Below are positions 3,110 to 6,318 of a DNA stretch of 7,753 bases, piece by piece. The notes under the pieces were generated by a model. That model worked only from the letters and a program-made list of their open reading frames with translations, did no database searches and was not told the DNA's origin. The DNA is from a virus (lineage: Duplodnaviria; Heunggongvirae; Uroviricota; Caudoviricetes), in IMG/VR virus record IMGVR_UViG_2751185961_000003, positions 1 through 7,753 of that record; one strand, 5' to 3'. The position numbers and the translations under genes were made by a program. Each line of letters starts with the position of its first letter. Position 1 is the stretch's first letter.

Positions 3110-3535
3110 TCAATGCACGACAACAGCATTACCAGGCTGACCACCACTGTTAGTCAGGGTGCCCCAGGCGATCGCCGCTGCGACAAAATCATCCACATCT
3201 TTCACCAGCCGATCCCTCCGTTCGACGATCTCACGGTAATATTCAGAGCTGTGACTGCGCATACGGGCCACCAGCAGAGGCGGCATTGCCTTTTCGATCG
3301 CCGGTAACAGAGCCTGAATTTTTTCAACAGCATCAGGGGTGTCTTTATCCAGCCAACGGAAAATTTTCTGGGTATTACGAGCCAGGGCTTCCGGATGGCT
3401 GTCGTCGTACAGTTCCGGGAACGTCATTCCCAGCTCGAAATACGCTTTGGTAATTTTCGCAGCCGGTACTTTTTCGCCGTCCGGATGCGCCCAGACATTC
3501 ATCGCCATGCGGATGTGCTCATGTTTGATTTTCAT
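3110..3535 (-). CDS. YdaT-like (CII-like) prophage regulator, 141 aa
   Basis: ATG at 3533-3535 with GGGAG 7 nt upstream; ATGA overlap with the upstream Cro-like gene; N-terminus MKIKHEHI and gene position (Cro-like, this, replication gene) match the Rac ydaS-ydaT-ydaU arrangement as I recall it. Confidence 0.65.
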   Translation of the reverse strand: MKIKHEHIRMAMNVWAHPDGEKVPAAKITKAYFELGMTFPELYDDSHPEALARNTQKIFRWLDKDTPDAVEKIQALLPAIEKAMPPLLVARMRSHSSEYYREIVERRDRLVKDVDDFVAAAIAWGTLTNSGGQPGNAVVVH

Positions 3536-3786
3536 GAATCAACTCCCATCAGCTTTTTCGTGGTAGTTTTATTTCTGCCAATAGTTAATATTGCATCGGC
3601 AGAAAATAATCCGTTTGATGCAAGAGCGATTTTTTCAGCGTAATTGGTTTCACCGGTATATTCAGTGCGCGGCAATTTCCCGTTATTAATCCACTTGTAG
3701 ATTGCTCTTTGGCTGACACCACAAACGTCGGACACAACAGAAACACGAACAGTTTTGATTACATCTTCAAGTGTGTTCTGGTTCAT
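3532..3786 (-). CDS. Cro/YdaS-like HTH regulator (84 aa)
   Basis: ATG at 3784-3786 with GGAG 5 nt upstream; HTH VSDVCGVSQRAIYKWINNGKLP; divergent from the repressor gene. The ORF-track N-terminal extension to 3858 would cross the promoter region. Confidence 0.7.
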   Translation of the reverse strand: MNQNTLEDVIKTVRVSVVSDVCGVSQRAIYKWINNGKLPRTEYTGETNYAEKIALASNGLFSADAILTIGRNKTTTKKLMGVDS

Positions 3787-3802
3787 ACCATCTCCATAAT
3801 GT

Positions 3803-3865
3803 GAACTTTGGGTACATGATATAGCAGAACTGACAGTACATTCAATAGCGAATATCATTGAACTT
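3803..3865. promoter_or_regulatory. Divergent immunity-region promoters with operator-like repeats (PRM-like plus-strand and PR-like minus-strand)
   Basis: Plus: -35 cTGACA 3830-3835, 17-bp spacer, -10 TATCAT 3853-3858, 7 bp to the ATG at 3866 (leaderless geometry). Minus: -35 TTGAAT (plus 3840-3845), -10 TATATC (plus 3818-3823). Repeats GAAC-N5-GTACAT at 3803-3817 and 3827-3841; dyad TTCAAT-N10-ATTGAA at 3841-3862. Confidence 0.5.
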
Positions 3866-4285
3866 ATGGTTCATGAAGATAAAGCGCGTAAAGAGTTCGC
3901 CAGCAGGCTTGCGCTAGCCTGTGAAAACGCTGGTTATGAACAACACGGGAGGCAGGCAGAAATTGCCCGTCGAATGAAATTAACACCAAAAGCGGTCAGT
4001 AAATGGTTTAATGGCGAAACAATTCCTCGACGAGAGAAATTGAGGGAATTAGCAGCACTCATAGGAACAACGCCAACATATCTTTTGGGCGAGGATACAG
4101 AAAGTAGTGCGCAGGCACGCTTCTATCAGGAGTTAAACCCAAAACAAAAAATCATCATTGACCTTCTAGACGAGCTACCTGACAGTGAAACAGATGAGCT
4201 TTTAAAAACTCTTGAGGAAAAAAAACAGAAGTACAATGCAATTTACGAAGAATTAACACGAAAGAAAAAACAAAAAGCCTCTTGA
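3866..4285 (+). CDS. DicA/RacR-type (cI-like) HTH repressor without peptidase domain, 139 aa
   Basis: N-terminal XRE-type HTH (QAEIARRMKLTPKAVSKWFNGETIPRREKLRELAALIGTTPTYLLGED); acidic/coiled C-terminus (LLDELPDSETDELLKTLEEKKQ) with DicA-like architecture; no SD, consistent with a leaderless transcript. Confidence 0.75.
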   Translation: MVHEDKARKEFASRLALACENAGYEQHGRQAEIARRMKLTPKAVSKWFNGETIPRREKLRELAALIGTTPTYLLGEDTESSAQARFYQELNPKQKIIIDLLDELPDSETDELLKTLEEKKQKYNAIYEELTRKKKQKAS

Positions 4286-4406: not shown

Positions 4407-4578
4407 CTACCAACCCACCCCGCTCCACAGAACGCCAGGCAATACTTCGAGTTACCAGGCAGTGGCAAGGGGTTAAGTAGCCAGCCCGAGGCGTAAGAAC
4501 ATGACGGCAGGGTTCAACTTTAACTATGCAGCAGGTTTTTGTTCCGCTCCCCCGGCGTTAAGGGGAAATGAGGTCAGC

Positions 4579-4731
4579 ATGGATACTATCGAGCTTGGCA
4601 ACAGCGAATCTCTGGTATGCGGCGTGTTTCCCAACCAGTACGGCACGTTTACCGCGATGACGTATACCAAAAGTAAAACGTTTAAAACCGAAGCTGGCGC
4701 GCATCGCTGGTTAGCAAGAAACTCCGACTGA
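4579..4731 (+). CDS. YdfA-like small protein (DUF1391), 50 aa
   Basis: ATG 4579-4581 with GAGG 5 nt upstream; MDTIELGNSESLVCGVFPNQYGTFTAMTYTKSKTFKTEAGAHRWLARNSD resembles Qin YdfA from memory. ORF-track start at 4501 has no SD. Confidence 0.6.
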   Translation: MDTIELGNSESLVCGVFPNQYGTFTAMTYTKSKTFKTEAGAHRWLARNSD

Positions 4732-4742
4732 TGAGGTTGACG

Positions 4743-5144
4743 ATGGAATTTAAAGATTTACCAGTACCATTCCAGGAAATGGCATCGAATGCGGTTCGCT
4801 CTCAACTGGCGACTCTTGACCTGAGTACCGTAGAAAAAGAAACCATCGATACTATATCCGGTAACGTGCGTCGTGCCTTTATAGGTCTGTATGAAGAGAA
4901 GCGCCTATTCGGCGGACAGAATTCGCCTGAAAACAAGAATCAAGCAAATGATGAGAAGCTGAAACACATTATCGCCTTACTTTTGGAAGACGCAAAACGT
5001 CTACAGCAACTGGAACCAAATGCAGGCACAGAGGCCCGCATTTGGATTGCCATGAAATCACTCAAATGTGAAAGCAGTGATTATTTCAAAACAACAATTA
5101 AAACTACTCAACTTTCGGGAGAGCTACTGAAGAAATTGCCATAA
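4743..5144 (+). CDS. Hypothetical protein (133 aa), no family recognised; sits where ydfB/ydfC lie in Qin
   Basis: ATG 4743-4745 with GAGG 6 nt upstream; alternatively ATG 4731 overlapping the upstream stop (TGATG). Helical-looking, no transmembrane segment. Confidence 0.6.
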   Translation: MEFKDLPVPFQEMASNAVRSQLATLDLSTVEKETIDTISGNVRRAFIGLYEEKRLFGGQNSPENKNQANDEKLKHIIALLLEDAKRLQQLEPNAGTEARIWIAMKSLKCESSDYFKTTIKTTQLSGELLKKLP

Positions 5145-5383
5145 GAGCATGGTCTTTCTCTTGTTCTGCAAGATGAGCATTAATACCTGGTATGGTTTTT
5201 TCAAATTTATCTATCTGTTGAATAACAACTTCGCGGTATACGTTTGTTTTTGTACCACCAAGCGCAGCCGTTAATGCAGAAAGCATATTTAGTATCATAT
5301 CAGTACGATATGAAAAGAATCCTGATAGCTTCATCTTGTTTTTCAATAATAGATTGCAGGGCCTCAATTTGCTTTTTATCCAT
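5104..5383 (-). CDS. AT-rich convergent ORF with frame ambiguity: 27-aa peptide from the SD-supported ATG, or a frameshifted about 90-aa protein
   Basis: AGGAGG (5389-5394) 5 nt upstream of ATG 5381-5383 gives MDKKQIEALQSIIEKQDEAIRILFISY then stop; the 94-aa track ORF is in another frame whose GTG start (5386-5388) abuts the SD. 3' end overlaps the plus-strand gene by 41 nt. Confidence 0.3.
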
Positions 5384-5704
5384 TTCACCCTCCTGAGGGT
5401 TGGTAATTAAGGAGTTCTCCACGGGTCAGGTGGAGTGCGTGCGCCGGACACGGGTGAGCATCCGGCACTGACAGTTTACTGAAAGGATATGTCCCTGAAA
5501 AGTCAGGGCATAACGCGAAAGCGCACGGCGAAATTGGTCTCTCTGTACGGTGTCGTTAAATTTAGTTCGACCGTGCACTTCCGGTTGTGGCACTCCGCGA
5601 AATGGCGCGGCGGTAAGTATGGCTGGGGTTTCCTCCATTGCTCCAGAAAATGCACCGGGTTGTCAGGTTGACCATACGCTTAAGTGACAGCCCCGCCACA
5701 ATAC

Positions 5705-5762
5705 CCATGCGTAGTCTTTGGTGGCATCAGTTCTACTCCGTGACTGCTCTGCCACCCTTTTT
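5705..5762 (+). ncRNA. dicF: DicF-like small RNA (cell-division-inhibiting sRNA homolog)
   Basis: 3' 41 nt (tttggtggcatcagttctactccgtgactgctctgccaccc + T5) about 90% identical to E. coli K-12 DicF as I remember it, with a compensatory stem change (GGCGG/CCGCC to GGTGG/CCACC); located just upstream of a dicB homolog. Confidence 0.55.
5720..5762 (+). terminator. Intrinsic terminator-like hairpin forming the DicF 3' end
   Basis: Stem GGTGGCA (5720-5726) / TGCCACC (5750-5756) followed by CTTTTT (5757-5762). Confidence 0.5.
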
Positions 5763-5944
5763 AAAGTGAATTTTGTGATGCGGTGAATGCGGCTATGCGC
5801 ACGCGGAACAGTTAAAACCGTAAAGTGGTCTTTTACGGGGCGTAACGGGCATCCTTCTGTATTCCGGCGTTAATTGTTAACTGGTTAACGTCACCTGGAG
5901 GCACCAGGCACTGCATCACAAAATTCATTGTTGAGGACGCGATA

Positions 5945-6133
5945 ATGGAAACGTTATTACCAAACGTTAATACGTCTGAAGGTTGTTTTGATATTGGTGT
6001 TCTGCTCAGTAACCGGGAGTTTACGGAAGATGCCATTAAGATGAGAAAATATGAACCTTATCTTCTCAATGATAATTCCATACTTTCCAGAATTGCCCTT
6101 CTTGAACTTGGTATTATCGGAGAACAGCAGTGA
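5945..6133 (+). CDS. dicB: DicB-like cell division inhibitor, 62 aa
   Basis: METLLPNVNTSEGCFDIGVLLSN... closely resembles K-12 DicB N-terminus (MKTLLPNVNTSEGCFEIGV...) from memory; GAGG 8 nt upstream of ATG; follows the dicF-like element. Confidence 0.8.
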   Translation: METLLPNVNTSEGCFDIGVLLSNREFTEDAIKMRKYEPYLLNDNSILSRIALLELGIIGEQQ

Positions 6134-6318
6134 CTTCAGCGTTTGCACTGATAATGACCGTTTTTCTTATAACGGGTGAGCCGCAGAATGTGATTACCGG
6201 AATTTATGACAGTAAGTCATCCTGCATTCAGGTAAGGGACGAACAAAAAATCCCCGGTGAATGCCTCCCGTTAAAAAAAGTATCGCTGTACCTGAATAAC
6301 GAAACACCGGCTGGATAA
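6130..6318 (+). CDS. YdfD-like small protein (62 aa)
   Basis: GTG start overlapping the dicB stop (GTGA) with GGAG 7 nt upstream; MTSAFALIMTVFLITGEP... has a hydrophobic N-terminus and sits where ydfD follows dicB in Qin. Confidence 0.6.
   Translation: MTSAFALIMTVFLITGEPQNVITGIYDSKSSCIQVRDEQKIPGECLPLKKVSLYLNNETPAG

Follow-up and report, generated by a model that had tools for sequence, protein, structure and literature searches.

DicF is a prophage small RNA that halts cell division by silencing ftsZ; through it, prophage induction is tied to the division of the host cell, to its sugar metabolism and, in EHEC, to virulence. Faubladier and Bouche are said to have reported dicF-like sequences in other prophages in 1994. 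The reference copy is that of the Escherichia coli K-12 Qin prophage (b1574, NC_000913.3 1649382-1649434), and the mechanistic work cited here was all performed on K-12-type sequence. According to genetic analysis, the 3' part of this RNA acts on ftsZ and pykA, and its 5' end, which also contributes to toxicity, on xylR; in the 5' mutant DicF3, ftsZ repression and filamentation persist (PMC5069750). The regulation of manX depends on the 3' end (PMC5861419). For a second RNA of K-12, KilS, a prediction based on Hfq RIL-seq was confirmed by northern blot; its mapped TSS is position 1418502, RNase E has a site at 1418471, and its partner is yncL (PMC8175672). DicF goes unmentioned in that paper.

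The DNA analysed here (the window, a whole stretch of 7753 nucleotides) is a lambdoid prophage immunity/early-left region with a dicBF-type operon. Its gene order matches that of the K-12 Qin dicBF operon and that of NCTC9112, the best E. coli match. The window is nevertheless a mosaic, at most ~74% of it being covered in one place by any complete E. coli genome. The features of the operon and of its surroundings are the following.

3532-3858, minus strand: divergent Cro/DicC-like regulator (HTH_17, E 1.4e-4, below cutoff; its position equals that of dicC / Cro-CI family genes)
3866-4285, plus strand: DicA/CI-like HTH repressor of the immunity region (Pfam HTH_3, E 1.4e-9; dicA position in K-12)
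4501-4731, plus strand: ydfA-like DUF1391, first gene of the operon (Pfam PF07151, E 2.4e-25)
4731-5144, plus strand: 137-amino-acid ORF in the place of K-12 ydfB/ydfC (without Pfam hit; its homologue in NCTC9112 is a "hypothetical protein")
5657-5693, plus strand: upstream hairpin, near-identical to K-12 (centroid fold of 5640-5800, alignment to K-12)
5705-5757, plus strand: DicF-family sRNA (Rfam RF00039 and ungapped alignment to b1574; the 53 nt are delimited by homology to K-12 DicF)
5755-5977, plus strand: dicB leader, common to K-12 Qin, the KilS/kil loci and the class C loci described below
5945-6133, plus strand: dicB, cell-division inhibitor (Pfam PF05358 DicB, E 3.7e-38, full length)
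6130-6318, plus strand: ydfD-like DUF1482 (Pfam PF07358, E 3.6e-14)

The operon position ydfA ... dicF - dicB - ydfD is thus that of K-12, whereas the 137-amino-acid ORF is unrelated to the ydfB/ydfC genes found there. dicB lies 187 nt downstream of DicF. The ~560 nt that precede DicF (5145-5704) hold no convincing gene, and likeness to K-12 is found in their last ~145 nt only. A 43-amino-acid ORF with a TTG start (5638-5769) overlaps dicF and was treated as spurious. On the minus strand, Pfam identifies DUF1627, lambda-P-like, DnaT-like and YdaT-like genes in addition to the Cro/DicC-like regulator. The lambda-P-like and DnaT-like replication ORFs, at 1821-2483 and 2275-2991 of that strand, overlap by ~200 nt as listed, and the downstream one probably begins at a start codon other than its first. 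A sub-threshold match to the STnc100 family (RF02076, 5755-5977, plus strand, 32.4 bits against a GA of 47, E 4e-5) also extends over the leader and the start of dicB. This match recurs 3' of DicF in K-12, in NCTC9112 and in a kil locus, suggesting that the dicB leader, conserved and structured, may be related to Salmonella STnc100.

When the entire window is scanned against Rfam, the DicF family RF00039 is the sole family above its gathering score. The match, at 5706-5757 of the plus strand, covers model positions 1-52 of 52 with 58.9 bits and an E-value of 2.8e-11; the curated gathering threshold of the family (GA) is 48 bits, and K-12 DicF scores 76.7 bits. An ungapped alignment of 5705-5757 with b1574 reveals 14 differences in 53 positions, very unevenly distributed: the 5' 12 nt share 2/12 positions with K-12, the 3' 41 nt share 37/41. 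In DicF numbering, the four 3' differences are C18U (5722), U21C (5725), U29C (5733, in the loop) and G50A (5754). A covariance-model score exceeding the threshold, a terminator hairpin that is intact and a location 5' of dicB together fully support the identification as a DicF-like sRNA put forward in the earlier note, whose figure of about 37 matches in 41 proved exact on alignment to the real gene and whose statement that the 5' 12 nt differ substantially holds as well. Judged by its sequence, 5705-5757 is a genuine sRNA gene of the DicF family, a known family in which it holds no exceptional place.

The element itself can be dissected as follows.

5705-5716, plus strand: type-2 (KilS-type) 5' module CCAUGCGUAGUC (2/12 identical to K-12, 9/12 to KilS CUGUGUGUAGUC)
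5717-5719, plus strand: UUU directly 5' of the hairpin (columns 13-15, invariant in all DicF alleles sampled)
5720-5756, plus strand: terminator hairpin, outer helix 5720-5726/5750-5756 and inner helix 5728-5731/5743-5746 (Rfam consensus structure, MFE)
5722, plus strand: U of the compensatory U:A pair, C in K-12 (alignment, pair counts)
5754, plus strand: A of the compensatory U:A pair, G in K-12 (alignment, pair counts, U.G intermediate alleles)
5758-5762, plus strand: U-run UUUUU of the intrinsic terminator, same as K-12

The hairpin is formed by a 7-bp outer and a 4-bp inner helix, in which all pairs are standard, and is followed by the U-run. Its MFE is -15.8 kcal/mol (z -2.37), as compared to -15.9 kcal/mol for K-12, and the architecture is unchanged. 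We infer that the UUU at 5717-5719 belongs to the Hfq-binding context. The ~30 nt located 3' of the U-run are K-12 sequence except for one base. A simple promoter/terminator scan found no promoter close to dicF and missed the hairpin, since an 11-nt loop and a bulge exceed what its rules allow; this is no evidence against a terminator.

Positions 18 and 50 are partners in the consensus structure of Rfam as well as in the MFE fold, and the replacement of C:G by U:A is therefore a true compensatory swap, which preserves the stem at 5722/5754 as the earlier note had proposed. The change U21C, for its part, turns a U.G wobble into a C-G pair. Among the 18 distinct alleles compared, 14 have C:G at 18:50, three have U:A and one has a mismatch, and 99.5% of the pair cells of the Rfam structure are paired, as compared to 26-71% when the partners are slid. 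Three IMG/VR copies of class B, the class to which the window allele belongs and whose common allele differs from it by a single base (U, not C, at position 6), carry U18 opposite G50 (CCATGTGTAGTCTTTGGTGGCATCAG...CTCTGCCGCCC). Such U.G alleles are the intermediate expected on a path from C:G through U.G to U:A. One K-12-type allele bears the opposite single change, resulting in a C.A mismatch at 18:50. The swap had been presented as evidence of selection on RNA structure: the stem is indeed kept and nearly all cells are paired, but the covariation evidence at 18:50, although consistent, is thin, since the double change amounts to a single substitution event.

The 5' end calls for a different description. 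The module CCAUGCGUAGUC stands in place of the xylR-pairing seed of K-12, UUUCUGGUGACG (type 1), and follows the consensus C-Y-N-U-G-Y-G-U-A-G-U-C (type 2). CYNUGYGUAGUC is found in two unrelated upstream contexts, together with at least four loop types, and when Qin-type and Rac-type contexts are compared, homology begins at the module itself. In ~115 KilS-type elements of IMG/VR the 12-nt module is invariant while loops and upstream flank vary. The window module is identical to that of KilS, CUGUGUGUAGUC, at 9/12 positions, in a shared register and adjoining the stem; the common class-B allele reaches 10/12. By our own calculation, the chance of at least 9/10 matches at a fixed register is ~3e-5. 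These comparisons indicate that the 5' end of the window RNA is a swapped, conserved second module and not the product of drift or divergence of the K-12 seed. The "diverged 5' end" of the earlier note is thus better described as replacement by a module common to KilS and to the DicF copies located upstream of kil.

The relationship with KilS extends beyond the module. Class C comprises DicF copies upstream of kil, such as that of E. coli 2013C-4974, and is represented in 28 IMG/VR contigs. A query with class C identifies an 87% match in the Rac prophage of K-12, between sieB and kilR. The element reads CUGUGUGUAGUC-CUGGCGGCAUCAG-(different loop)-CUGAUGUCCGCCC-UUUUU, followed by the same leader as found 3' of DicF, and its DicF score of 39.1 bits is sub-threshold. 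In the K-12 RefSeq record it bears the name KilS (b4833, NC_000913.3 1418405-1418502) and lies in the 5' UTR of kilR. Like the window RNA, KilS combines a type-2 module (CUGUGUGUAGUC versus CCAUGCGUAGUC), a left arm GG(C/U)GGCAUCAG, a U-run and the leader UUUUUAAAGUGAAUUUUGUGAUGCGGUGAAUGCGGCU, and is positioned just upstream of a small FtsZ-inhibitor gene. Unlike it, KilS, which measures 98 nt, has an unrelated loop and right arm, UUUUUUUCUUGAAGUUCGGCUGAUGUCCGCC, devoid of the ACUCCG anti-SD core; it has its own mapped TSS and an unrelated upstream flank, and precedes kilR instead of dicB. Conversely, the window lacks the KilS-type loop and right arm as well as the kilR 5' UTR location, and harbors the DicF loop with dicB downstream. 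On the basis of the shared 5' module, left stem arm, U-run and downstream leader, and in spite of the different loop, KilS is, at the sequence level, a DicF homologue.

Class C copies, with a Rfam DicF score of 60.9 bits, share with the window the type-2 module, C21, C29 and a DicF-type loop, and differ from it by a C:G pair at 18:50, by G39 and C44, by a Rac-type upstream flank and by the presence of kil downstream. Their module, CU(A/G/U)UGUGUAGUC, is placed behind a wholly different upstream flank.

As compared to K-12 DicF, the window RNA retains the two-helix hairpin, the U-run, the anti-ftsZ/pykA core, the upstream hairpin and the dicB leader. It departs from it by U:A for C:G and C-G for U.G in the stem, by U29C in the loop and by the absence of the xylR-pairing seed. 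Also absent, upstream of DicF, is the 14-nt AU-rich stretch of K-12 (UCUGUUAUCAAUUU) that holds the RNase E site, which could shift the mature 5' end, and with it the seed, relative to K-12. A single-stranded stretch, 5694-5719, between the hairpin 5657-5693 and the DicF hairpin, is available for 5' cleavage. The 161-nt precursor does not exceed shuffled sequences in folding stability (z -0.17), and no long-range RNase III helix is proposed.

Target pairing was evaluated with simple thermodynamic models on K-12 mRNA sequences. Full-length duplex predictions are unrealistic, as they involve long-range pairings, and seed-only duplexes compared with shuffles were relied on together with a cofold net ddG, defined as the dimer minus the monomers with intramolecular structure included. 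The net binding values of the two alleles are the following.

ftsZ: K-12 allele -16.3, window allele -11.4 kcal/mol
pykA: K-12 allele -9.9, window allele -16.4 kcal/mol
manX: K-12 allele -13.0, window allele -9.5 kcal/mol
xylR: K-12 allele -15.3, window allele -3.0 kcal/mol

The hairpin loop carries the 13-nt anti-ftsZ/pykA core UACUCCGUGACUG, same as K-12; nucleotides 30-49 of DicF are unchanged as well, and the CUCCG:CGGAG pairing with ftsZ is kept. A 6-bp helix with ftsZ is interrupted by U29C, which breaks one flanking pair and accounts for a predicted net binding weaker by ~5 kcal/mol; the full-length duplex, a type of prediction considered unrealistic as mentioned above, gives -29.3 for the window versus -30.2 for K-12. 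The largest difference between the alleles concerns xylR. Nucleotides 4-16 of K-12 DicF form a perfect 12-bp duplex with xylR +8..+21 (-16.7, 1% of shuffles), whereas the window seed gives -9.1 (55% of shuffles), no better than shuffles. The xylR seed is a property of the K-12 allele and not of the RF00039 family, whose 5' consensus is weak. On ftsZ, xylR, pykA, manX and yncL, none of the pairings of the window 5' seed is better than shuffles. An extension of the pykA duplex by this seed (-13.3 kcal/mol at pykA +7..+20, 10% of shuffles) was considered and discarded as not significant. For KilS itself, nucleotides 29-50 pair with the yncL 3' UTR at -21.0 (2% of shuffles); the window seed on yncL gives -10.5, equal to the shuffle mean, and the KilS partner is not shared by prediction.

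Pairing with ftsZ, pykA and manX is thus predicted to be largely kept, somewhat weaker in the case of ftsZ, and control of xylR to be lost. The earlier note opposed ftsZ to metabolic mRNAs as the targets of different regions of DicF and suggested an altered target set. Different regions are indeed used, but pykA and manX share with ftsZ a dependence on the 3' part, xylR alone depending on the 5' end; for this reason retention of most known targets is predicted, and the alteration is limited, among them, to the predicted loss of xylR.

manX +21..+32 (ACACAUGG) and flanking bases are complementary both to the seed of the common class-B allele, CCAUGUGUAGUCU, and to that of KilS, with energies of -16.0 and -16.8 kcal/mol (1-3% of shuffles), which are marginal after multiple testing. 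In the window, C6 (5710) weakens this pairing to -12.1, which is not significant. The site lies approximately where SgrS is reported to pair, and manX +21..+32 is a candidate target of the type-2 seed in these models.

We assign a probability of about 0.8 to the reading that the window encodes a DicF-family, Hfq-dependent, trans-acting sRNA with a type-2 seed, which would keep the cell-division role, be devoid of xylR control and possibly act on new targets. By analogy with K-12 DicF, relief of the DicA-like repressor would yield an operon transcript stopping at the hairpin and U-run 5720-5762, RNase E would trim its 5' side inside the single-stranded stretch 5694-5719, and Hfq would bind the resulting RNA. 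The loop and 3' arm, UACUCCGUGACUGCUCUGCC, would pair with the ribosome-binding region of ftsZ, blocking FtsZ synthesis, and, by the same analogy, with pykA and manX. The type-2 module may bring new targets of its own.

The window RNA might instead be a functionally equivalent DicF in which the 5' difference is inconsequential, this segment being trimmed off or unused, and only ftsZ silencing counts. The 5' end of the 53-nt RNA was set by homology while the K-12 RNase E region is deleted, the 5' mutant DicF3 still represses ftsZ and filaments (PMC5069750), and the window seed performs no better than shuffles on the five mRNAs examined, all of which would fit such an equivalence. However, the type-2 module is kept across unrelated flanks and loops, above its surroundings, which argues for selection, and the 5' end of K-12 DicF is genetically required for xylR and adds to toxicity (PMC5069750). 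We consider full equivalence unlikely, although it is the most serious competitor of a trans-acting sRNA with a type-2 seed.

The distribution of the alleles bears on the two other explanations. A query of 86 nt centred on the window RNA, at a coverage of at least 80%, retrieves the window allele class in 207 of the 5426 complete E. coli genomes (~4%), five at 100% identity, among them E. coli EC2 (NZ_CP058571.1) and SCU-104 (NZ_CP053284.1), and ~200 at 98.8%, the latter with the common class-B allele; the corresponding K-12 query retrieves 3973 genomes (73%). Neither allele has a PGAP annotation under its matches, a lack that is uninformative. The window allele therefore represents a minority but well-populated class of DicF, less unusual than the earlier note had assumed. 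A complete scan of IMG/VR for the type-2 module followed by DicF-type spacing yielded 81 matches: ~40 class B, 28 class C, ~8 with other loops and ~5 attributable to chance. Among the class B matches, the exact window sequence is present in four IMG/VR contigs, all with dicB 3' of it, while class C combines the same kind of 5' end and a C:G stem with kil downstream. Cross-combinations are rare, with type 1 found upstream of kil twice and class B once. In a sample taken without condition on the loop, 105/119 type-1 alleles have an identical DicF loop, which argues for loop selection beyond the needs of a terminator. A degenerate core pattern with 15 specified bases, applied to genome contigs, returned nearly exclusively chance matches from unrelated phyla, the only real one being a K-12-type allele of Escherichia ruysiae.

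These data weigh on the idea of a cis-only intrinsic terminator or processing signal, comparable to a tL-like attenuator upstream of dicB and devoid of any trans role. By its architecture, a hairpin followed by a U-run in an operon leader, the element is a terminator, and KilS-type homologues with quite different loops hold the equal position upstream of kil. A terminator could nevertheless vary freely in its loop, yet here the 13-nt anti-ftsZ/pykA core remains that of K-12 and the loop is near-invariant in samples taken without condition on it; the K-12 orthologue is moreover a proven trans-acting sRNA (PMC5069750). A purely cis-acting element is accordingly improbable. As to a decaying dicF pseudo-copy in a cryptic prophage, which the 14/53 differences from K-12 and a Rfam score of 58.9 versus 76.7 bits might evoke, it deserves hardly any credit in view of stem changes that are compensatory or strengthening with unchanged energy, of a class that varies very little over the ~207 complete E. 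coli genomes and ~40 contigs of IMG/VR in which it occurs, and of an intact neighbouring dicB.

Returning to a trans-acting DicF with a type-2 seed, the parts of the family can be enumerated: two 5' modules, loops of the anti-ftsZ type, of the KilS type and of at least two others, and dicB or kil downstream. Natural DicF alleles thus fall into discrete classes, in which the ftsZ-targeting loop is kept and the 5' seed exchanged. It is tempting, but only tentatively so, to view DicF and KilS as one modular sRNA family, the seeds and loops of which would be reshuffled by lambdoid-prophage recombination, with type 2 as a second functional seed. If true, each prophage would bring its own combination of host targets, and the window would be a natural chimera of a type-2 seed and an anti-ftsZ loop. 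Should the 5' module be a working seed, the host mRNAs affected on derepression would differ with the prophage complement of the strain. The new element is that the alternative seed is the KilS seed: in the literature searched, the link between KilS and DicF is absent and no paper names both, while an earlier description of type-2 alleles or of the Rac homologue is possible. The modular relationship between DicF and KilS constitutes a modest but testable lead, and the window allele offers a ready-made natural chimera for tests of seed modularity.

Two further observations concern the surroundings and the diversity of these elements. In E. coli 7/2 (NZ_CP023820.1), a carrier of the common class-B allele, a gene for a Rha-family regulator is inserted between class-B dicF and dicB; an 84-nt dicB fragment adjoins dicF, and intact dicB is found ~1 kb further. 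This insertion explains many class-B loci without dicB within 700 nt. In IMG/VR, other loops occur behind the type-2 module (UUUAAUUGCUGG, UUUUAUUGCUGG, UUUUUCUUAGUCCUUU and AUUUUGUUUUCCCUUCUGCUCUGCC), most of them upstream of kil, which suggests that the DicF/KilS superfamily comprises more members than the Rfam DicF model captures.
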